A stretch of 64,000 nucleotides of DNA from an uncultured Actinomycetes bacterium (GTDB lineage Bacteria > Actinomycetota > UBA4738 > HRBIN12), in assembly GCA_964640085.1 (NCBI GenBank), contig CAZXFA010000001.1:67586-131585 (forward strand), written 5' to 3'. Numbering within the stretch: the first letter of the stretch is position 1; each line of letters starts with the position of its first letter. A model generated the notes under the pieces. It was not told where the DNA came from and made no database searches. It was given only the letters and a program-made list of their open reading frames with translations. This document shows positions 5,765 to 25,276 of the stretch, one piece after another. The position numbers and the translations under genes were made by a program.

Positions 5765-6471
5765 TCGGGGCCGTGATCTTCGACCTGTTCGGGACGCTCG
5801 TCCACGAGTTCCCTCGCGCGGACTGGGAGGCCTGGCTCGAGGTGAGCGCGGCCGCGATGGAGGCCGACCCGGAACGGTTCCGGCGAGCCTGGGAGGCCAC
5901 GGCGGTCGAACGCCAGACGGGCGGGCTGGGGGACATCGAGGAGAACCTGCGGACGGTGGCCGCCCGGGCGGGTGCCTGGCCGACCGGTTCCCAGATCGCG
6001 GAGGCGCTGGAGGCTCGCGCCGCCCTGTACCGGAAGTGGTTCGTCCCCCGGCCCGGCGCCGGTGAGGTGTTGGCGGAGCTCCGCCGCCGTCCGGTGCCCA
6101 CCGCGTTGATCAGCATGTGCGCCCCCGACACCCCGCCGCTGTGGCTGGCCTCGCCGCTTGCCGGGAGCGTCGATGTCGAGGTCTTCTCCTCCGAGGTCGG
6201 CCTGCGCAAGCCCGATCCGGCGATCTACCACCTGGCGTGCGAGCGGCTGCGCGTCGAGCCTGCGGACTGCCTGTACGTCGGGGACGGGAGCTACGGTGAG
6301 CTCACCGGCGCGGCCGCGGTCGGGATGCGAGCGGTGCTGCTCCGGGACCCGGCGGAGGCGGAGACCCCAGCGCTGCGCCCGCACCCGGATCCCTGGGAGG
6401 GGGAGCGGATCGAGCATCTGCGCGAGGTGCTCGCGATCCTGGACGAAGGGGACGCGGCGCGCATGGCCTGA
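5761..6471 (+). CDS. HAD-superfamily hydrolase (haloacid dehalogenase-like phosphatase)
   Basis: GTG 5761 overlaps the GNAT stop (GTGA). N-terminal motif I VIFDLFGTLV, later ...LYVGDGSYGELTGA (motif IV). In the frame of track ORF 5425..6471. Confidence 0.75.
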   Translation: MIGAVIFDLFGTLVHEFPRADWEAWLEVSAAAMEADPERFRRAWEATAVERQTGGLGDIEENLRTVAARAGAWPTGSQIAEALEARAALYRKWFVPRPGAGEVLAELRRRPVPTALISMCAPDTPPLWLASPLAGSVDVEVFSSEVGLRKPDPAIYHLACERLRVEPADCLYVGDGSYGELTGAAAVGMRAVLLRDPAEAETPALRPHPDPWEGERIEHLREVLAILDEGDAARMA

Positions 6472-14925: not shown

Positions 14926-15078
14926 CTAGTGCTCCTCGAGGGCCTCGTGATGCGCCGGGGCGGCCGCGCGCTCGGCGTGGCGGTCGCGGACGAACAGGAT
15001 CCAGCCGCTCGCGGACACGAACGCCGCGGCGGCGATCAGCAGCCCGAGGGCCAGCAGGAACGTCGCTTGACGGTCCAT
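14926..15078 (-). CDS. small upstream ORF (50 aa): TM helix plus His-containing tail; its stop abuts the hisD start
   Basis: ATG 15078 to TAG 14926, immediately followed by the hisD GTG. Product MDRQATFLLALGLLIAAAAFVSASGWILFVRDRHAERAAAPAHHEALEEH. Speculative: it could be a translationally coupled leader-like ORF or a chance ORF. Confidence 0.3.
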   Translation of the reverse strand: MDRQATFLLALGLLIAAAAFVSASGWILFVRDRHAERAAAPAHHEALEEH

Positions 15079-15128: not shown

Positions 15129-16745
15129 TCAGCCGGGCCTTACGGCCCGACGCCGGGCCTCGGCTCGGCGCTCGGCCTCGAGGCGCTCGAGATCCACGTC
15201 GCTGACGTCGACGTGCGTCATCGCGCCGGCGATCGCGCGGTGTCCGGCGACCTCGGCGATCAGCCGGTGCATCTCGTGCGCCACGCGCCGGTACGTCGGA
15301 TGGCCCTGGGGGGAGCTCCGGAGCTCGATCAGGTGCATCGCCTCGCGCGCGTTCATCTGCATCACGAAGCGGATCCTGTAGGCCATCGAGACCGCGTACT
15401 GCGCGACTTCCTTGCTCGCGGCCGCGAACAGCGTCTCCCACGTCTGCGCCGAGTCCTCCATGATGCCGTGCCACGCGTCCTCGAACCCCGAGTCGACGAT
15501 CTCGGCCGGCGTCTCGTAACCGTGCATCGGCGACAGGCGCTGCCATTCGAGCGTGAGCGGGCGGTGGCGCTGGAGGTCGCGGAACGCCCCGTAGTCGCAG
15601 AGGACGTCGAACCGGTAGTCGGTGCGCTCGAACGCCCGACCAGGCTTGTGGCGCCGGTTGCTCCGGTCGCCGACGTACGCGCGGAGCACGTCCGTCCGCT
15701 CGCCGTGGCTCATCCCGCGGGCGAGCTCCCGGCACCGCGCGTCGGGCAGGTCCGTCGCCGCGTACAGGGCCGCCGCGACGACCTTCTCCTCCCCCTCGGG
15801 GTCGAAGTCGGTGAGCGTGACGAGCTCGGTCGGGCCGGGGGCGACGTCCTCCGTGTACCTCGCCGCCGCCCCGAGCGTGCGCTCGCGCGCGTCCTCCAGG
15901 TAGCGGGACCAGGCGATCCCTCGATCGGGGAGGTCCACGCGCCTGAGGAACGCCGGGATCACCTTGCGGAGCTCCGTGAGCATCAGGTCCGCGTACCCCC
16001 GCACCTCGGCCAGCGGATGCGCGCGCATCCGCAGGAGCATCTGCTCGTAGCTCTGCCCCGTCGCGTACACGCCGAGGTTCGAACGCGTGCCGGCCGGGAG
16101 CAGCACGCGCAGCGTGTCGCAGGTCTTGGCCGTGATCGTCGAGCGGTAGATGGTATCCGAGTCGTTCGGGTCCTTCGGGAAGCGCTGCCGGAACAGGTCG
16201 GCCACCGGCTCGAACATCCGGCCGTATGCCCGGAACATCTGGTCTGCGAAGGTCCCGTAGCGCTCGAGGGCCGGCGTGCCCTCGAGCTCGGGCGGGACCG
16301 TGAGGCGCCAGCGGCCGCCCGGCCGGTCGTCGTAGCGCATGTACCGGGTGGACTGCTCGAGGTAGGCCGCCAGCCGCCCCCATTCGATGGTCTTGGCGAG
16401 GAGCTGCGAGGCCTGCTCGCACGCGAGGTGGACCCCGCCGAGCTGGGCAACGGAGTCGTCGCCGTACTCGAAGAACACGTTGTCGTAGAGCTTCTCGGCG
16501 CGCTGCACGCCGACCTCGCTCGTCGCCCCCTCCGACTCCACGTCCTCGGCGAACTCGTCCAGGAAGAGCCGGCGGAGCGACTTGGTGGTCCGTGAGTACC
16601 GCGCGAACAGCGCCCCCTTGACGACCTCGGGCAGGTTCACCAAGGCGAACACGGGCCCGTCAAGGTTGGTGAAGTGGGGCGCGAGCCGGGCGCGCTCCTC
16701 GTCCGTGAAGTCCTCGTGGACGAACCAGAGGCCCGCGTCAGCCAT
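15129..16745 (-). CDS. flavin-dependent thymidylate synthase (ThyX/Thy1)-like protein, double-length (538 aa, apparently tandem ThyX domains)
   Basis: The C-terminal half carries the ThyX signatures QRHRPLTLEWQRLSP (RHR-x-S-like) and MQMNAREAMHLIELRSSPQGHPTYRRVAHEM (NAR...LR...H...E of ThyX). The N-terminal half is more diverged. The ATG 16745 overlaps the pknB stop by 8 nt. Confidence 0.5.
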   Translation of the reverse strand: MADAGLWFVHEDFTDEERARLAPHFTNLDGPVFALVNLPEVVKGALFARYSRTTKSLRRLFLDEFAEDVESEGATSEVGVQRAEKLYDNVFFEYGDDSVAQLGGVHLACEQASQLLAKTIEWGRLAAYLEQSTRYMRYDDRPGGRWRLTVPPELEGTPALERYGTFADQMFRAYGRMFEPVADLFRQRFPKDPNDSDTIYRSTITAKTCDTLRVLLPAGTRSNLGVYATGQSYEQMLLRMRAHPLAEVRGYADLMLTELRKVIPAFLRRVDLPDRGIAWSRYLEDARERTLGAAARYTEDVAPGPTELVTLTDFDPEGEEKVVAAALYAATDLPDARCRELARGMSHGERTDVLRAYVGDRSNRRHKPGRAFERTDYRFDVLCDYGAFRDLQRHRPLTLEWQRLSPMHGYETPAEIVDSGFEDAWHGIMEDSAQTWETLFAAASKEVAQYAVSMAYRIRFVMQMNAREAMHLIELRSSPQGHPTYRRVAHEMHRLIAEVAGHRAIAGAMTHVDVSDVDLERLEAERRAEARRRAVRPG

Positions 16746-18465
16746 CGTCCCCGGTGGGCCCGGTCGGTCCCGTCGGCCCGGTGGGCGCCGGTTCCTCCCC
16801 CGCGTACAGGGTCACGGTGGAGCCGGCCGGGACATCGGTCCCTGGCGCCGGATCCTGCGCCGCCACCTTGTTGCCCAGCGGGCAGAGCGGGTTGACGGGT
16901 CTGGTCTCGCTCGAGATCACCGGGTTCAAGCCTTCCTTCCGGACCTGGTTCTGCGCGGCGTTGAAGCTGAGGCAGGTTACGTTGGGGACCTCGACCGCGC
17001 CCGCGCCGGTGGACACGATGATCGTCACCTCCGACCCGAAGTCCGCTGACGTGCCCGCGGGCGGGTCCGTTCCGATCACGTCCCCCTCGTCGATCTCGTC
17101 GTTCGACTGGTCCTCGAAGCCGGCGACCACGAACCCGAGCGCTTCGAGCTCGGCTTGCGCCTGGTCGGGGGAGAGGTTCTCCACCGAAGGGATCGTCACG
17201 GAATCCGGCGCCACCAGCACGGTGAGCGTGACCTCCGTGCCCGCCTCGACCTCCTCGTCCGGCGCCGGGTCCTGGTCCACGACGGTGTTGGGGATCTCGT
17301 TCTCCGGCTCCACGATCTCCTGCTCGACGATCTCGTCGGCGACGATCAGGCCCTCCTCCTCGAGGGTCGTGCGGGCCCGGTTGAGGCGCTCGCCGATCAC
17401 GTTCGGGACCAGGACCACCTCCGGGCCGGTCGGCCCGGGCTCGTCCTCGAGCAAGCCCGTCGCCAGGAACCACAGGACGCCACCCAGGATCCCCAGGATC
17501 AGCAGGGTCACCAGGACCGGGATCCACCAGCGGCCGCGCTCCGGCTCTGGCTCGTACGAGGGCGGGAGGACCTCGGTGCGCGTGGCCGGCGCCGGGCGCT
17601 CGAGCACCTGGGTCGCGCCCGTCGCGGGCAGGACCGGCGTGGCCTCCACCGGCAGGCCCCGGCGCACCCGCTCGAGGTCGGCGCGCAACTCCTCGGCCGA
17701 GCCGTACCGGTTGTCCGGGTTCTTCGACAGCGCCCGGAGGATCACCGCGTCCAGGTCGGGCGAGACGTCGGGGTTCAGCTGCGAGGGGGAGAGCGGCTGC
17801 TCGAGCACCTGCTTGGAGGCCACGGTGACCGGCGAGTCGCCGAGGAACGGCGGGCGTCCCGTCACCATCTCGTAGAGGACGCAGCCGAGCGAGTAGAGAT
17901 CGGACCGCGCGTCGACCGGCTGCCCCTGCGCCTGCTCGGGCGAGAGGTACGAGGCCGTTCCCAGCACGGCGACGGTCTGTTCCACCGTCTCGGTCGCCGA
18001 GGTCATCCGCGCGATCCCGAAGTCGGTCACCTTCACCTCGCCGCGCGCGTTCAGCATGATGTTGCCGGGCTTGATGTCGCGGTGGATCACGCCCTGCGCG
18101 TGGGCGGCTCCCAGCGCCCGGCACACGTGCTCGGAGATGTCGATCGCGCGATCGGGCATGATCCGTCCGCCGCCGGTCAGGTACTCGGCGAGGGTCTTGC
18201 CCTCGACGAACTCCATCACGATGTAATGGACCCCGTCGTCCGATCCGGTATCGAATACCGAGACGATCGTCGGATTGCTGATGCTCGCGGCGGCCTGCGC
18301 CTCGCGCCTGAACCGCGACACGAACCCCGCATCCTCGGCGAACTGCGGGGCGAGCACCTTGATTGCGACGCTGCGGCCGAGCACCGTGTCGGTGCCCTGG
18401 AACACCTTGGCCATCCCGCCCCGGCCGAGCTCGCGCTCGACGCGGTAGCGACCCCCCAGCATCAC
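16738..18465 (-). CDS. pknB: Ser/Thr protein kinase with PASTA repeats
   Basis: Hanks kinase motifs GRGGMAKV...AIK, HRDIKPGNIM, DFGIA, SPEQ. TM helix, then extracellular repeated PASTA-like modules. C-terminal tail ...PTGPTGPTGPTGDDG. Confidence 0.9.
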   Translation of the reverse strand: MMLGGRYRVERELGRGGMAKVFQGTDTVLGRSVAIKVLAPQFAEDAGFVSRFRREAQAAASISNPTIVSVFDTGSDDGVHYIVMEFVEGKTLAEYLTGGGRIMPDRAIDISEHVCRALGAAHAQGVIHRDIKPGNIMLNARGEVKVTDFGIARMTSATETVEQTVAVLGTASYLSPEQAQGQPVDARSDLYSLGCVLYEMVTGRPPFLGDSPVTVASKQVLEQPLSPSQLNPDVSPDLDAVILRALSKNPDNRYGSAEELRADLERVRRGLPVEATPVLPATGATQVLERPAPATRTEVLPPSYEPEPERGRWWIPVLVTLLILGILGGVLWFLATGLLEDEPGPTGPEVVLVPNVIGERLNRARTTLEEEGLIVADEIVEQEIVEPENEIPNTVVDQDPAPDEEVEAGTEVTLTVLVAPDSVTIPSVENLSPDQAQAELEALGFVVAGFEDQSNDEIDEGDVIGTDPPAGTSADFGSEVTIIVSTGAGAVEVPNVTCLSFNAAQNQVRKEGLNPVISSETRPVNPLCPLGNKVAAQDPAPGTDVPAGSTVTLYAGEEPAPTGPTGPTGPTGDDG

Positions 18466-18497: not shown

Positions 18498-19991
18498 TCA
18501 GGTGCCCAGGGCGGCCTCCAGGACCGCCCGCGCGATCGGTGCGGCCACCTGCCCCCCCGTCGCTTCGCTGCCAAGGCTACCGCCATCGAGCACGATCACG
18601 GCGACGGCGATCACCGGAGCCGGCGCCGGCGCGAAGCTCACGAACCACGCGTGGGGGTCCGCTCCCTCGCCGTGTTGGGCGGTTCCGGTCTTGCCGGCGA
18701 CCTGCACGCCTGAGATCCGGGCGGCCGTCCCGGTTCCGTTGTCGACGACCTCGACCATCATCCGCGTGAGCGCCTCGGCGTTCGTCGGCGAGAGGGGCGT
18801 GGAGAACTCCTCCGGTTCGAACTCGGCGATCACCCGGCCCGTGGGGTCGCGCATCTCGGTGACCAGGCGCGGTCGCATCTGCACGCCGCCGTTGCCGATC
18901 GCCGCCGCGACGAGCGCCATCTGGAGCGGGTTCGCGGCCACGTCCTGCTGCCCGATCGCCGAGAGCGCGATCGCTGGCGTCCGCTGCTCGAAGGTCTCGG
19001 GGGCCGGGAACACGCCCGAGACCCACGGGATGTCGAACGGCACCAGGTCCTGGCCCGGTTCCTCGGTGAAGCCGAACAGCCGGGCCTGCTGCGCGAGCGC
19101 GTCGGCCCCGAGCTCCAGCCCGATCTCGCCGAACGTGACGTTGCAGCTCACGCGGAGCGCGACGGCGAGCGTGATCTGGCTCGCGCCGCCGACGCAATGT
19201 GCGCCGCCGAAGTTCTCGAGCGTCTCGGTCGTGAGCGGCAGCTCGAGCTCGCGAGGGTTCGGCCAGGTGGACTCGGGGCCGAACCCGTTCTCGAGCGCTG
19301 CGGCAGCCGTGACGATCTTGAACGTCGAGCCCGGAGGGAACAGCTCGTCGCTCGCCCGAGAGACGAGCGGCTTGTCGGGGTCCGCGTTCAGCTCCTCCCA
19401 CGTCGGGCGGACCACCTGCGGATCGTGTGAGGAGAGCGGGCTCGGGTCGTACGTCGGCTCGGCCACCAGCGCGAGGACGTCACCGGTCGACGGGTCGACG
19501 GCCGCGATCGCGACGTCGCCCGGCTCGGCCGCCGCGGCTTCCTCGGCGGCGGCCTGTAGATCGGGGTCGATCGTGGTGACGATCGTGGCGCCCTGCTTGT
19601 CGCGGCCGAGGACGAGATCGGTGAGCGTCTGCGGGAGGAGCTCGGCCGCATCGCCGGCCAGGTAGTCGTTGTAGGCCGCCTCGAGCTCGGTCCGGCCGAA
19701 GACGAAGGAGTAGAAGCCGGTGATGTGCGCGTACCGCGGCCCCTGCGGGTACCGGCGCTGGTACCGGAGCTCGCCGGCGCTGCGACGGCTCGAGGCCAGC
19801 ACGGTGGTCCCGTCGCGGGCCAGGATGCTGCCGCGGTCCACCTCGTACTCGGCGATCAGCTGACGTTTCGCGTTGGCGGGGTCGTTCGCGATCCGATCGG
19901 CGGCGAAGACCTGGAGGTAGTTGATCTGCGTGAACAGCGCGAGGAACAGGATCAGCAGCGCGGCGCCGAGGCGACGGATCTGGCGGTCCAC
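18498..19991 (-). CDS. pbpA: class B penicillin-binding protein (transpeptidase)
   Basis: N-terminal TM, then STFK, SCN and KTGT motifs. 497 aa. Confidence 0.9.
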   Translation of the reverse strand: MDRQIRRLGAALLILFLALFTQINYLQVFAADRIANDPANAKRQLIAEYEVDRGSILARDGTTVLASSRRSAGELRYQRRYPQGPRYAHITGFYSFVFGRTELEAAYNDYLAGDAAELLPQTLTDLVLGRDKQGATIVTTIDPDLQAAAEEAAAAEPGDVAIAAVDPSTGDVLALVAEPTYDPSPLSSHDPQVVRPTWEELNADPDKPLVSRASDELFPPGSTFKIVTAAAALENGFGPESTWPNPRELELPLTTETLENFGGAHCVGGASQITLAVALRVSCNVTFGEIGLELGADALAQQARLFGFTEEPGQDLVPFDIPWVSGVFPAPETFEQRTPAIALSAIGQQDVAANPLQMALVAAAIGNGGVQMRPRLVTEMRDPTGRVIAEFEPEEFSTPLSPTNAEALTRMMVEVVDNGTGTAARISGVQVAGKTGTAQHGEGADPHAWFVSFAPAPAPVIAVAVIVLDGGSLGSEATGGQVAAPIARAVLEAALGT

Positions 19992-19992
19992 C

Positions 19993-21312
19993 TCAGCCCA
20001 CCCCCCGCACCTCGACCGGGCCGGAGGAGAGCCGGACGAGGAGCGCGAGTAGGACGAAGTTGGAGACCAGGCTCGAGCCGCCGTACGACATGAACGGGAG
20101 CGTCACGCCCGTGAGGGGGATGAGCCGGGTGACGCCTCCCACGATCACGAACGCCTGGAGGGCGACGATCGTGGCGAGCCCCGTCGCGAGCAGCGCCCCG
20201 AACCCGTCGGTCGGGGCGAGCGCGCGTCCGATCCGCAGCCCCTTGCCGATCAGCACCACGAACAGGAGCAGCACCGCGGTGGTGCCGAGCAGTCCGAGCT
20301 CCTCCCCGATCGCCGCGAAGATGAAGTCCGTCGGGGCGAACGGGATCAGGCCCGGCGAGCCCTGCCCCAGCCCCGTCCCGACCAGCCCGCCCGTCGCCAT
20401 CGCGAACTGCGCCTGCGCGAGCTGGCCGTAGCCCTGCTCGAAGACGTTCGCGGGATCGAGGGCGTTCAGCCAGACGTCCACCCGGAGCTGCACGTGGTCG
20501 AAGAGCGCCCACCCCGCGTACGCCCCGGCGGCGAACAGGAGAAGCCCGATCACGAGGTAAGCGGCTCTGCCGGTCGCCACCCAGATCATCACCACGAAGA
20601 TCCCGAAGTAGAGGAGCGAGGCGCCGAGGTCGCGCTGGAAGAACAGGATCGCGAGCGAGGCGCCCCAGGCGAGCAGCACGGGCCCGAGGTGCTTGGCCGA
20701 CGGGAGCCGGAGGGGGCCGAGGCGGGTGGTGGCGACCCGGAGCAGCTCGCGCTTCTGGTCCAGGTACGAGGCCAGGAAGACGACGATGAGCACCTTCCCG
20801 ATCTCGGCGGGCTGGAACCCGAGGGGACCGATCTCGACCCACAGGCGGGCCCCGTTGATCGTCTGCCCGATGCCGGGGACCATCGGCAGGAGCAGCAGCA
20901 CGAGGCCGAGCAGCCCGATCGTGTAGGTGTAGGCGTCGAGCATCCGGTGGTCGCGCACCACGACCAGGGTGGCGGCGAACGCGAACAGTCCCACCACGAT
21001 CCACGTTGCCTGCTCGGCGGCCAGGCCGCCCGAGAGGCGGAAGATCATCGCGAAGCCCAGCCCCACCAGGACCCCCGCGGTCGGGAACAGCGCGGGGTCC
21101 GCGTTCGGCGCGAACCGGCGGATCACAACCAGCGCGGCGAGGTACCCGAGCGTGAAGATGGTGGCGTACAGGCCGAACGTGGCCGGCAGCCGATCACGCT
21201 TGCCGTACCCCGCGATCACGTAGGCCCCGACGGCTAGGATCAGCGCGAGAACCGTGAACGCGATCGCGGGCAGCAGCGGAGCCCGGTCGGTACGGGCGGC
21301 GGTCCGGCTCAC
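19993..21312 (-). CDS. rodA: SEDS-family peptidoglycan glycosyltransferase (FtsW/RodA)
   Basis: Polytopic membrane protein with ...LPFMSYGGSSL... near the C-terminus. One-nt gap to pbpA, 4-nt overlap with pstP. Confidence 0.9.
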   Translation of the reverse strand: MSRTAARTDRAPLLPAIAFTVLALILAVGAYVIAGYGKRDRLPATFGLYATIFTLGYLAALVVIRRFAPNADPALFPTAGVLVGLGFAMIFRLSGGLAAEQATWIVVGLFAFAATLVVVRDHRMLDAYTYTIGLLGLVLLLLPMVPGIGQTINGARLWVEIGPLGFQPAEIGKVLIVVFLASYLDQKRELLRVATTRLGPLRLPSAKHLGPVLLAWGASLAILFFQRDLGASLLYFGIFVVMIWVATGRAAYLVIGLLLFAAGAYAGWALFDHVQLRVDVWLNALDPANVFEQGYGQLAQAQFAMATGGLVGTGLGQGSPGLIPFAPTDFIFAAIGEELGLLGTTAVLLLFVVLIGKGLRIGRALAPTDGFGALLATGLATIVALQAFVIVGGVTRLIPLTGVTLPFMSYGGSSLVSNFVLLALLVRLSSGPVEVRGVG

Positions 21313-22436
21313 GAGCCTCCCGCCGCGGCGCGGGCCACGTCAACCCTGATGCGCTCCACGATCTCCTCGGCATCCTGTCGGTCGGCGGCGGTGATGCCCT
21401 CGTCCAGGTCGCGGTAGATCTCCAGGGCCATCGCCTCCTCCGCGTCGACCGGCGTCTCGACCACGACCGAGTGCAGCTCGATGCCGGCGACCTCGGCCGG
21501 CACCCCGCGGAAGATCGCGACCTGCCCGTCGGACACGCCCACGTACCACTGCGAATCGAGGAACAGCCGCACCCCGACGAGCCCCACCAGGATGGTCGCG
21601 ACCACGATCCCGACGGTGATCGCCAGCCGGATGCGGTTGCGGGCTCGGGCGGGCGGCCGCGGCACGGCCCCCGGCTCCGGGGGCGTCGGGGGTGCCCACC
21701 CAACCGTGGTCGCGGTCGATGGCGGGTCGTCCCCCGTGCTCTCCTCGAGGTCCAGGATCACCACCGTGATGTTGTCCACGCCGCCGGCCGCGTTCGCCTC
21801 GTTCACGAGACGATCGGCCGCCTCCTGGGGATCGGCGATCTGCCCCAGGATGTCCCGGATCCTCGCCTCCGGGAGCATGCCCGTCAGGCCGTCCGTGCAC
21901 AAGAGCAGCCGGTCGCCTCCACCTACCTCGACGACCGCCTCGTCCACGCGGACGGCCGGGTCGACCCCCAGCGCGCGCGTCAGGATGCTCCGGTGCGGAT
22001 GCGTCTCCGCCTCCGTCTCGGTGATCTCGCCTTCCTCCACCATCCGATGCACGAGCGTGTGATCCTCTGTGAGCCGTCGGAGACGTGCGCCTCGGAACAG
22101 GTAGGCCCTGGAGTCACCGACGTGGGCCACGCGGACGTGAGTCCCCTCGAACAGCGCGGCGGTGAGGGTGGTGCCCATGCCGGCGACCTCGCGGTCGAGC
22201 TGCGAGCGCTCGAACACCGCACGGTTGGCCCGCTCCACCTGCTCAGCGAGCGTCCCTGTGCGTTCCTCGAACAGGCGCTGGATCGTCTCGAGCGCTACGC
22301 GTGAGGCGACCTCGCCCCCACGGTGGCCACCCATCCCGTCCGCCACGGCGAACAGGGGCTCCTCCACCAGGAGGGAGTCCTCGTTCCCCTCCCGCACCCG
22401 TCCGATGTCGGAGGTCGCGCCGATCCGGATCCTCAC
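21309..22436 (-). CDS. pstP: PP2C-family Ser/Thr phosphatase
   Basis: ...ATSDIGRVREGNEDS...VADGMGGH...; C-terminal TM and extracellular tail. Confidence 0.9.
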   Translation of the reverse strand: MRIRIGATSDIGRVREGNEDSLLVEEPLFAVADGMGGHRGGEVASRVALETIQRLFEERTGTLAEQVERANRAVFERSQLDREVAGMGTTLTAALFEGTHVRVAHVGDSRAYLFRGARLRRLTEDHTLVHRMVEEGEITETEAETHPHRSILTRALGVDPAVRVDEAVVEVGGGDRLLLCTDGLTGMLPEARIRDILGQIADPQEAADRLVNEANAAGGVDNITVVILDLEESTGDDPPSTATTVGWAPPTPPEPGAVPRPPARARNRIRLAITVGIVVATILVGLVGVRLFLDSQWYVGVSDGQVAIFRGVPAEVAGIELHSVVVETPVDAEEAMALEIYRDLDEGITAADRQDAEEIVERIRVDVARAAAGGS

Positions 22437-22888
22437 CGGCGGAGCTCCAGCAGGGTCTTTCCCACGCGCACGACGTCGCCCGCGTGCACCTCGACGGGCG
22501 AGGCGACCCGTCGGTCGTTCAGGAACGTTCCGTTCGTCGAGCCCATGTCCTCCACGAACCAGCCCCCGTCTCGTCCGACCAGGCGCGCGTGCACCTGGGA
22601 GACGTACGTGTCGGAGAGGCGGATCGTGCAGGACGCGCCCCGGCCGATCTCGACCGATCCGGAAAGGCGGACCGAACGCGGCGGATGTCCGTCGGGCTCG
22701 TGCACCAGGACCTGCGTCGGAGGCTTGCCCTTGGAGGGGGCGGCCGCGGCGGCCGAACGCCCTGTTGCCCGCTCCGCTCGGCGCCGACCGACCACGTCGA
22801 CCGCGACCGAGCGCACCGCGCGGAAGACGAAGAAGTACAGGAGGACCAGCAACGCGTACTTGAGGACCGAGAGCGCGAACGGAGACAC
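22433..22888 (-). CDS. fhaB: FHA-domain protein FhaB/FipA-like
   Basis: N-terminal TM helix, C-terminal FHA domain (...GRGASCTIRLSDTYVSQVHARL...STNGTFLNDRRV...). Confidence 0.85.
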   Translation of the reverse strand: MSPFALSVLKYALLVLLYFFVFRAVRSVAVDVVGRRRAERATGRSAAAAAPSKGKPPTQVLVHEPDGHPPRSVRLSGSVEIGRGASCTIRLSDTYVSQVHARLVGRDGGWFVEDMGSTNGTFLNDRRVASPVEVHAGDVVRVGKTLLELRR

Positions 22889-22889
22889 C

Positions 22890-23576
22890 TCAACCCCTCC
22901 GGAACTCGAGCAGGGTCTCGCCGATCGTGATCCGGTCGCCGTCGTCCAGGATCCGCTCCTGCACCGCCTCGTCGTTCACGAGGGTGCCGTTGGTCGATCC
23001 GAGGTCGGTGAGGACGTACTCGCCGTCCGCGTGTCGGATCCGGGCGTGCTGACGCGAGGCGCCGGGATCGCTTACCACGATGTCGCACTCGGGCAGGCGG
23101 CCGAGGGTGATCGGGCCCGTGCCCAGTCGGAACGTCCGTGCGTCGCCCTCGCGCTCGTACAGCGTCAGGCTCGCGGCCTCAGAAGGCTGCGGCGCGAGCT
23201 CCTCCTCCCCCTCGACGAAGGAGGCCTCGCAGGTGAAACGCCCTTTCGACAGGTCCTGGTCGATCAGGAGCTCGACCTCCGGCGGCCCGACCAGGCCCCA
23301 GCCGCGCTCGGTCGCGGTCTCGCGGACCACGCGCTTGAGCTCCGCCGCCAACGCGTGCTCGGCCTGCTCGAACCGTTGCCCGTCGTGCTCGGAGACCGAC
23401 AGCACGTACCGGTTCGGCGCCCAGACCTCCCGGACGCCCACCGTCCGGTTCGCCTCCATCTCGCGCATCACGCGCTTGGCGAGCTCGACCGGTTGCAGGC
23501 CGGACCGGAACGTGGTCGCGAAGAAGCCCTCGACCAGGTTCCCGAGGCGGCGCTCGAAGTCACGGAGGATCGGCAC
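22890..23576 (-). CDS. fhaA: FHA-domain protein FhaA-like (DUF3662 + FHA)
   Basis: N-terminal DUF3662-like region (MPILRDFERRLGNLVEGFF...) and C-terminal FHA (...GRLPECDIVVSDPGASRQHARI...STNGTLVN...). Confidence 0.85.
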   Translation of the reverse strand: MPILRDFERRLGNLVEGFFATTFRSGLQPVELAKRVMREMEANRTVGVREVWAPNRYVLSVSEHDGQRFEQAEHALAAELKRVVRETATERGWGLVGPPEVELLIDQDLSKGRFTCEASFVEGEEELAPQPSEAASLTLYEREGDARTFRLGTGPITLGRLPECDIVVSDPGASRQHARIRHADGEYVLTDLGSTNGTLVNDEAVQERILDDGDRITIGETLLEFRRG

Positions 23577-23692: not shown

Positions 23693-23779
<87 letters not shown>

Positions 23780-23890: not shown

Positions 23891-25276
23891 CTAGTGGGCG
23901 GTGCCCGGCAGCACGGTGATCGTGCCCTCCATGCCCGCCTCCCGGTGTCCCGGGATCGAGCAGTAGAAGGTGTACGTGCCCGGGATGGCTTCGAACGTCC
24001 CCTCCACGGTCTCGTTCGCGCCCATCACCAGCTGGACATCGAGCTCATCGATCGTGAAGTCGTGCTCGAACGCGTCCTGGTTGGCGATCGCGAGCGTGAC
24101 CTCCCCCTCGGCGACCTCCAGGTCGCCGGGCGAGAACCCCGTGATCGTGGCATCGACCGACACCGGCCCCTCCTGCGCGCCGCCGTCGTCCGATCCGCCC
24201 TCGACCACCGCAGGGGTGGCGCCGTACCGGAGCACACCCGCGGTGAACGGATCACCGAACACCGGGTAGGTCGCCGGGGCGGCCTGCGCATCCGCCGCCA
24301 CCTGGAGCACGCCCACCGCGCCGAGCCCCGTGTACGCGAACGAATGCGTGACGAACGGGTACAGCCCCTCGTCGGGGATCCTGAGCTCGAACATCGTGCC
24401 TCCGCCCGGCGGGACGTTGTAGGTCTGGACTCCGTTCAGGGCGTTGGTCGGGTTCCCGTCCGCGTAGACGTGGTCGAACAGCGCGCCGATCACGTGGAAC
24501 GCGTTCGTGAGGGTCGGGCCCGCGTTCATCACCCAGATCCGGATCAGCTCGTTCGGGCGCGCCTGGAGGGGTGCGTCCAGGTACCGGTTCGCCATCCCGT
24601 CGAACACGACGTGCGTCGGATCGGCGGCCTCCATCTTGGCCACATCACCCGTGTACAGGGCGTCGGGTCCCGGCTCGTCGCTGGCGTAGAACTCGCTCGA
24701 CGTGAGCACGAACTCCCGGGCCGGCTCCAGGCCCTCGGGCTCGACGATGATCGCCCCGTACATGCCGTTCGCGATGTGATGCAGCACGGGGGGGACCCCG
24801 CAGTGGTACATGAACACGCCGGGGAACCTCGCGACCCAGTCGAACGTGAGCGTCTCGCCGGGGGCCACGGGCTGGTAGTTCACGTTCCACGGCGTCTGGG
24901 CCGCGTGGAAGTCGATCGAATGCGACAGGCCGAGACCCGACTCGTTCGTGAGGGTGAAGCGGACCGTGTCTCCGAGCTTCACCCGGATCACCGGACCCGG
25001 GGCCGTCCCGTTGAACGTCCACACCTGGTAGTCGACGCCATCGGCCAGGGTCTGGGTCGTCTCCCCGGCCACCAGATCGACCTCGACGATGTTCCCCGTC
25101 CCCTCGCCTTCCAGCCGGAAGGCCTCGGCGACGTCGGGAACCTCTGGGCTGGTGGTAGCTCCCTCGTCGCCACCCCGGGCGATCGGTCGAACCCAGGTCA
25201 GCCCCACGATCAGCAGCGCGACCTGGATCATCGCTCCCACCGCAAGCACCCTGCGCATCGTCCCCACCCTTTCCAT
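23891..25276 (-). CDS. nirK: copper-containing nitrite reductase with a C-terminal cupredoxin extension (three-domain NirK)
   Basis: N-terminal signal/TM segment. SHSIDFHAAQ and MYHCGVPPVLHHIANGMYGAIIVEP carry the type-1/type-2 Cu ligand pattern of NirK. The C-terminal ~100 aa (...YTFYCSIPGHREAGMEGTITV) is a plastocyanin/azurin-like Cys-His-Met domain. An alternative start lies at ATG 25258. Confidence 0.85.
   Translation of the reverse strand: MERVGTMRRVLAVGAMIQVALLIVGLTWVRPIARGGDEGATTSPEVPDVAEAFRLEGEGTGNIVEVDLVAGETTQTLADGVDYQVWTFNGTAPGPVIRVKLGDTVRFTLTNESGLGLSHSIDFHAAQTPWNVNYQPVAPGETLTFDWVARFPGVFMYHCGVPPVLHHIANGMYGAIIVEPEGLEPAREFVLTSSEFYASDEPGPDALYTGDVAKMEAADPTHVVFDGMANRYLDAPLQARPNELIRIWVMNAGPTLTNAFHVIGALFDHVYADGNPTNALNGVQTYNVPPGGGTMFELRIPDEGLYPFVTHSFAYTGLGAVGVLQVAADAQAAPATYPVFGDPFTAGVLRYGATPAVVEGGSDDGGAQEGPVSVDATITGFSPGDLEVAEGEVTLAIANQDAFEHDFTIDELDVQLVMGANETVEGTFEAIPGTYTFYCSIPGHREAGMEGTITVLPGTAH

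Follow-up and report, generated by a model that had tools for sequence, protein, structure and literature searches.

The thyX2 locus

We analysed a stretch of 64,000 nucleotides (nt) from contig CAZXFA010000001.1 of an uncultured Actinomycetes bacterium, hereafter the window, and focused on a gene of 538 codons, here called thyX2, which lies on the minus strand directly after a gene for a pknB-type Ser/Thr kinase and encodes a relative of the flavin-dependent thymidylate synthase ThyX. An earlier note on this DNA had described an open reading frame (ORF) of 538 amino acids (aa) whose ATG lies 8 nt into the end of pknB, and a direct reading of the sequence bears this out. The start codon of thyX2 is the ATG at 16743-16745 and the TGA of the kinase occupies 16738-16740; the kinase ends with GAC GAT GGC TGA and thyX2 opens with ATG GCT GAC. 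The stretch that runs from the preceding in-frame stop to the conserved LWFV motif of thyX2 contains no alternative start codon, and simple scans around the gene found neither a promoter nor a terminator.

Two alignments of the protein family were used: a shallow profile (A1), which gave marginal PDB matches only, and a profile (A2) that draws on 73 diverse sequences. The reference proteins were the ThyX of Mycobacterium tuberculosis (Mtb) and of Thermotoga maritima (Tm). The features are as follows.

15129..16745, minus strand: thyX2, tandem ThyX gene, 538 aa plus stop (ORF list, translation, two Thy1 matches)
16738..16745, minus strand: 8-nt overlap ATGGCTGA between the pknB stop and the thyX2 start (read directly from the sequence)
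15936..16673, minus strand: N-terminal Thy1 domain, about aa 25-270 (Pfam, profile A2 against Mtb ThyX, column counts)
15822..15929, minus strand: linker, a long helix (aa 273-298) plus a loop to aa 308 (secondary structure of the AlphaFold2 model)
15222..15821, minus strand: C-terminal Thy1 domain, about aa 309-508 (Pfam, profile A2 against Tm ThyX, hhalign, column counts)
15132..15221, minus strand: conserved C-terminal tail helix, aa 509-538, with the sequence LERLEAERRAE (alignments A1 and A2, model)

The tail contains columns that are invariant in A1, and its R521 is kept in at least 90% of the sequences of A2; in the AlphaFold2 model the helix itself spans residues 522-535.

Two ThyX domains in one chain

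The ORF had been proposed to be a tandem fusion whose N-terminal half is a diverged second copy of ThyX, and a count of Thy1 (PF02511) domains with the Pfam hidden Markov model confirmed it. The whole protein scores 145.1 bits over two stretches, against a curated cut-off of 24.8, and each half also matches on its own (N half, aa 77-265, 66.6 bits, E=3e-18; C half, aa 311-500, 82.5 bits, E=4e-23). Since both scores are far above the cut-off, the N half is a genuine second ThyX domain. A BLASTP comparison of the two halves detected no significant similarity, and it is at the level of profiles that they align (hhalign E=1e-5, 82% probability, 12% identity), which indicates that the duplication is old. 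A phmmer search of the 538-aa protein against PDB sequences retrieved no ThyX. With profile A2, the N half matched Mtb ThyX (2af6/3gwc) at E=3e-15 and the C half matched Tm ThyX at E of about 2e-6. No structure of the tandem form was found in the copy of the PDB that we searched.

An AlphaFold2 model computed on A2 (m3fecd1bf0136) reached a mean predicted local confidence (pLDDT) of 93.5 and a predicted TM-score (pTM) of 0.92; it replaced a run on 32 close homologues, which had given a pLDDT of 54.9 and was discarded. The 538-aa protein has the ThyX fold, and the confidence of the A2-based model indicates that the two domains are packed in a defined manner. One chain is thus shown, in the predicted structure, as two ThyX domains packed as a pseudo-dimer.

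The catalytic residues are split between the two halves

The active site of ThyX sits between three monomers (PMC6514825, PMC3498832). In Mtb ThyX, subunit A contributes the RHR motif and R199, subunit B contributes S71 and R190, and subunit C contributes R87, S105, R107 and Y108 (PMC6514825). We mapped these positions onto the thyX2 product with the help of profile-sequence alignments to the Mtb and Tm enzymes and counted their conservation in 73 sequences with 33-56% identity to the thyX2 protein.

At the RHR position the N half reads W122-G123-R124, having lost the first two residues (Arg-His). The last Arg of the motif (R124) is kept in 71 of the 73 sequences, and the columns of R78 and H79 hold R, D or W and G, S or A, respectively. 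The stretch E130-Q-S132-T-R134-Y135 (nt 16341-16358) follows, in which E130, S132, R134 and Y135 are the equivalents of Tm E86, S88, R90 and Y91 and are conserved in 70, 72, 71 and 69 sequences, respectively. R213 (nt 16107-16109), the equivalent of Tm R147, is present in all 73. The position of Tm R165 is taken by Q231 (Q in 48 sequences, R in 21) and that of Tm R174 by R239 (R in 32, K in 25), and G95-D96-D97-S98 is aligned with Mtb G68-H69-F70-S71.

The C half shows the opposite set of losses. Its RHR motif is present as R393-H394-R395 (nt 15561-15569; 72, 70 and 70 of 73), N465 and R467 are the counterparts of Tm N163 and R165 (R467 in 72 of 73), R476 (nt 15318-15320) corresponds to Tm R174 (72 of 73), and H482 is also conserved in the 73-sequence alignment. 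The segment S88-G-R90-Y91 is deleted, leaving a gap of 9 residues in the hhalign alignment, and the position of R147 is occupied by Q449, this Arg being replaced mostly by Q in the 73 sequences. In canonical ThyX the motif RHR-x7-S(-x-RY) lies within one domain, whereas in the thyX2 product it is whole only across both halves, the C half contributing RHR and the N half S-x-R-Y.

The same pattern, S-x-R-Y and R147 in the N half with RHR, R165 and R174 in the C half, holds family-wide, including the fusion proteins described below and members named Dormibacteria and Woesebacteria. Each class of residue that contacts the phosphates of flavin adenine dinucleotide (FAD) and dUMP is present once per chain. 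Neither half is complete, and the losses in the N and C halves complement each other. The earlier note had placed the ThyX motif blocks in the C half, which holds for RHR and the equivalents of R165 and R174; the S-x-R-Y loop and R147 are found in the N half instead. Its suggestion that one half might be catalytically dead is not borne out by the residues, both halves being incomplete in complementary ways. We found no earlier description of this complementary split in the searchable literature.

A separate candidate was the segment FARYSR (aa 47-52), taken as a degenerate RHR motif of the N half followed by an insertion of 70 residues. The profile alignment to Mtb ThyX refuted it, as the RHR position falls at W122-G123-R124, and we infer from the alignment that FARYSR belongs to the N-terminal strand-helix part of the ThyX fold.

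A large family linked to dTMP synthesis

The thyX2 product belongs to a known, very large and already annotated family of tandem ThyX proteins, in which more than 1000 clusters at 50% identity have the two-domain layout. A word-indexed search returned at least 8000 homologues, among them a 100% identical protein (P0001). The top 120 are 73-100% identical over 95-100% of the length, measure 531-557 aa and are named FAD-dependent thymidylate synthase or ThyX wherever they are named. An exhaustive search of 50%-identity representatives gave 4612 clusters at E<=1e-3 and 1011 at E<=1e-30. In the best 150 clusters, two-domain proteins of full length (about 500-580 aa) prevail, with identities as low as 33%; the others are shorter and apparently incomplete, or have additional domains. 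Even at 33% identity, representatives align from about residue 8 to about residue 535 and are therefore colinear with the tandem protein. With each species represented by a single genome, relatives are encoded at no fewer than 583 loci. By names and record titles, the family is found in uncultured Actinomycetota, Acidimicrobiia (Microthrix, Ilumatobacteraceae), Rokubacteria, Candidatus Dormibacteria, Woesebacteria of the candidate phyla radiation (CPR) and the DPANN archaea Woesearchaeota and Norongarragalinales. A literature search on ThyX in Acidimicrobiia found nothing relevant.

Among the archaeal entries, P0185/P0288 and P0156 are full-length tandem ThyX proteins named from Woesearchaeota and Norongarragalinales. 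The occurrence of tandem ThyX in DPANN archaea means that the duplicated form spans both prokaryotic domains.

Canonical ThyX proteins (TM0449, Rv2754c and those of H. pylori and PBCV-1) are homotetramers of subunits of about 220-250 aa with four identical sites. Chlamydia trachomatis ThyX (CT632), of about 529 aa, is a tandem protein too, a likeness to the thyX2 product that is one of architecture and not of compared sequences. The chlamydial enzyme is active in vitro (PMC3498832) and was too divergent for the first phylogenies (PMC6171736). In Chloroflexi other than Dehalococcoides, a domain-duplicated ThyX is reported to be the only thymidylate synthase, a form which as of 2009 'has not been characterized' (Valas and Bourne 2009, PMC3224940). 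This protein, like the thyX2 product, has two ThyX domains in one chain, the two being likened by description rather than by sequence comparison, and the thyX2 family includes Ca. Dormibacteria, a Chloroflexi-related lineage. The polyoxin UMP/dUMP C5-methylase PolB (PDB 4p5a), which gave a marginal match with the family profile (E=0.035), is a single-domain protein encoded in an antibiotic cluster, whereas the thyX2 product has two domains and its gene has cell-division and histidine genes as neighbours.

Four distant relatives carry an additional enzyme. In P0199, P0214 and P0228 (about 764-781 aa) an N-terminal thymidylate kinase (PF02223) precedes the same two Thy1 domains, and in P0192 (703 aa) an N-terminal dUTPase (PF00692) does so; the key residues of all four are identical in pattern to those of the thyX2 product. 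Since dUTPase makes dUMP and thymidylate kinase consumes dTMP, these fusions place the tandem module in that pathway. Identities of 74-89% among the 120 best hits, which all measure about 535 aa, point to strong purifying selection, and the tandem family behaves in a housekeeping-like way. Residues, purifying selection, the Chloroflexi literature and the fusions all favour the identification of the tandem family as a thymidylate synthase, as judged from sequence.

thyX2 as the last gene of a pknB operon

The earlier note had also described a conserved actinobacterial division cluster with a single kinase and no pknA running into the ThyX-like gene, and Pfam matches on six ORFs support this description. 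The genes fhaA, fhaB, pstP, rodA, pbpA and pknB follow each other in this order on one strand, upstream of thyX2. No pknA lies between pbpA and pknB, which are separated by 33 nt (18498 and 18465), and a single ORF matches Pkinase. Downstream of thyX2, 203 nt on, come hisD and hisC, and then hisB and hisH, these last two by reading of the translations only.

16738..18465, minus strand: pknB-type Ser/Thr kinase, Pkinase plus three PASTA domains, 575 aa (Pfam)
18498-19991, minus strand: pbpA, transpeptidase of a class-B penicillin-binding protein (Pfam)
19993-21312, minus strand: rodA/ftsW (Pfam)
21309-22436, minus strand: pstP, PP2C phosphatase (Pfam)
22433-22888, minus strand: fhaB, FHA protein (Pfam)
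22890-23576, minus strand: fhaA, FhaA_N plus FHA (Pfam)
23693-23779, plus strand, opposite to fhaA: tRNA-Leu(CAG), just beyond fhaA
13636..14925, minus strand: hisD, first gene of the downstream his cluster (Pfam Histidinol_dh, 496 bits)

The cluster has the genes and order of the Mycobacterium fhaA-fhaB-pstP-rodA-pbpA-pknA-pknB cluster, with a tRNA-Leu beyond fhaA, which we take to resemble the mycobacterial leuT next to fhaA. It differs in having one kinase and no pknA, and in continuing into thyX2, a membrane peptide gene and the his genes. The mycobacterial cluster lies near oriC, and by analogy the tRNA-Leu next to fhaA suggests that the region is the conserved origin-proximal division region.

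To survey the linkage, we probed 80 loci (L001-L080) by tblastn with the proteins neighbouring thyX2 in the window. Among loci with at least 65% identity, each of the 26 informative ones has pknB as the gene immediately upstream of thyX2 (L001-L021, L023, L032, L042, L043 and L072, where L022, which has no upstream sequence, was left out of the count), with pbpA, rodA, pstP and fha genes further upstream wherever the contig reaches. The 53 loci with identities of up to 64% all lack the linkage. There, thyX2 is preceded by a DSHCT helicase gene in 40 loci and by an M20-peptidase-like gene in 32, and is followed by DUF4193 and then by NUDIX, GNAT and HAD genes. No dut, tmk or folate gene stands beside thyX2 in these 53 loci, where all neighbours are unrelated housekeeping genes, and this neighbourhood is uninformative on the function of thyX2. 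The pknB placement is thus shown to be a quirk of one actinobacterial lineage, in which thyX2 is the last cistron of the fhaA-pknB operon. The arrangement had been called unusual: the linkage is real but bound to one clade, and the tandem architecture itself is widespread and annotated.

The junction between the two genes is tight in about 19 of the 26 loci, where they either overlap by 4-11 nt or stand 1-4 nt apart: a 4-nt ATGA/GTGA overlap occurs in about 11 clade loci, the overlap is 8 nt in the window and 11 nt in L042, and a gap of 1-4 nt separates the genes in about 7. Through such overlapping stop and start codons, thyX2 as the last cistron is translated by coupling to pknB, so that dTMP synthesis is probably expressed together with the genes of cell-wall growth. 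Six loci (L017, L019, L020, L021, L043 and L072) have a gap of 31-84 nt instead. In at least five of them the spacer, located around nt 5900-6000 of the locus (about 4500-4560 in L043), contains a -10-like box (TAGCAT, TAGGAT or TACCAT), mostly from a few to about 10 nt before the thyX2 start. With this box, thyX2 may have a promoter of its own in the long-gap loci, perhaps a leaderless one. Given that the linkage is confined to one clade and that six loci have a spacer, the arrangement looks like operon placement and not obligate functional coupling: the association of pknB and thyX2 is stable in one lineage, and neither universal nor evidently mechanistic.

A proposed pseudo-tetramer with composite active sites

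We consider it likely that the thyX2 product is a working flavin-dependent thymidylate synthase of the tandem type, acting as a pseudo-tetrameric dimer with composite sites. Since ThyX sites are built from three subunits and the residues are split between the halves, we infer that two chains would assemble as a pseudo-tetramer mimicking the canonical homotetramer and containing two composite sites. In the canonical site the first subunit provides RHR and the uracil-binding Arg, the second a Ser and an Arg to FAD, and the third the Ser-x-Arg-Tyr loop. The C domain would fill the first of these roles (A) with its RHR and Arg174-type residues, and the N domain the third (C) with its Ser-x-Arg-Tyr loop and Arg147-type residue. 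Complete sites would need a C domain in the first role together with an N domain in the third, and the residue pattern would therefore leave two composite active sites per dimer, not four. In a D2-like dimer, two complete sites are formed if the C domains are related by the A-B axis or by the A-D axis, and none in the third arrangement. By homology, reduced FAD would carry the methylene group from methylenetetrahydrofolate (CH2-H4folate) to dUMP, yielding dTMP.

Several points weigh against this interpretation. The quaternary arrangement, the intrachain interface included, is deduced from the residue pattern, and the second-subunit role, which contacts FAD, fits the C domain and the N domain alike. 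D96, D97, S98 and R124 in the N half and R370 in the C half are strongly conserved, yet they lie, depending on the arrangement, in the supposedly incomplete site. The protein also falls short of canonical ThyX in the NCBIfam equivalog model (TIGR02170 thyX, 55.5 bits against a cut-off of 87.9), although the residue split would explain why tandem proteins are under-scored by such models. Neither a ThyA nor a second ThyX was found within the 64-kb window, a result whose reach is the window; most of the family lacks the pknB linkage; and the searchable literature yielded no biochemical or structural data on the 538-aa protein, nor on any verified close relative.

The conservation of D96 to S98, R124 and R370 means that the incomplete site may not be simply dead and may have a retained or a new role. 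Such second sites may consist of the RHR-like x-G-R124, R/K239 and the G95-D96-D97-S98 loop of the N half, together with the C half that is devoid of the substrate loop. That this second pair of sites is live and repurposed, for instance as an NAD(P)H or regulatory nucleotide site, with the enzyme being tied in this lineage to PknB/PstP signalling and dTMP synthesis thereby gated along with cell-wall growth, seems to us improbable.

Another reading is a real regulatory coupling, in which PknB, PstP or the FHA proteins would have ThyX2 as their substrate or partner and the growth kinase would gate the supply of dTMP. It is compatible with thymidylate synthase function, and the adjacency to pknB in every informative locus of the clade, mostly with overlapping stop and start, speaks for it. 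However, the adjacency is missing in all 53 more distant members, whose housekeeping neighbours are unrelated, the six spacers with a TAGCAT/TAGGAT box suggest that thyX2 can have its own promoter, and a literature search on ThyX with PknB gave incidental co-mentions only. We regard this coupling as unlikely; the linkage itself would gain importance only with proof that growth signalling and dTMP supply are connected by regulation.

It is also very unlikely that the C half is a complete catalytic ThyX with the N half as a dead scaffold that preserves the oligomeric shape. The C half has the higher Thy1 score and the textbook RHR motif, and it alone is detected in the window by tblastn with Tm ThyX. 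But it has neither the Ser-Gly-Arg-Tyr loop nor an equivalent of R147, and the N half, which is the better profile match to Mtb ThyX, keeps E130, S132, R134, Y135 and R213 in 69-73 of 73 sequences, down to 33% identity, which is unexpected for a dead scaffold. Very unlikely, too, is that the protein is not a thymidylate synthase, but a ThyX-fold enzyme for another substrate (for instance a hydroxymethylase or, like PolB, a UMP C5-methylase) or a pseudoenzyme that was recruited to PknB signalling and senses nucleotides, given that all residues of Mtb and Tm ThyX that contact dUMP and the FAD phosphates occur once per chain, that relatives are fused to the enzymes flanking dTMP synthesis, that the family occurs in single copy in many phyla, in a housekeeping-like manner, and has been reported as the only thymidylate synthase of Chloroflexi (PMC3224940), and that no nucleoside-antibiotic genes lie near thyX2.

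ThyX is an antibiotic target that has been studied almost only as a single-domain homotetramer, and the tandem form abounds in uncultured Actinomycetota, Chloroflexi-related lineages, CPR bacteria and DPANN archaea. The residue split would serve as a natural experiment in the number of sites, out of four, that ThyX requires. The points that add to the known picture are this complementary catalytic split, which predicts two composite sites per dimer, and the clade-specific placement of thyX2 as the last cistron of a pknB operon.

Other features of the window

Between thyX2 and hisD lies a short ORF, absent from the ORF list, whose stop abuts the hisD start. Its product would have a single hydrophobic helix. 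By tblastn, at least 20 related loci contain it, at up to 86% identity, located either immediately before hisD or immediately after thyX2, and it is probably a real gene for a small membrane protein, as its conservation suggests.

14926..15078, minus strand: small membrane peptide ORF, 50 aa, one hydrophobic helix, MDRQATFLLALGLLIAAAAFVSASGWILFVRDRH...

Finally, beyond the tRNA gene, an ORF of 461 aa at 23891-25276 (minus strand) resembles, by eye, a copper-containing nitrite reductase or multicopper protein, with a cupredoxin-like C-terminal motif, YCSIPGHREAGMEG.

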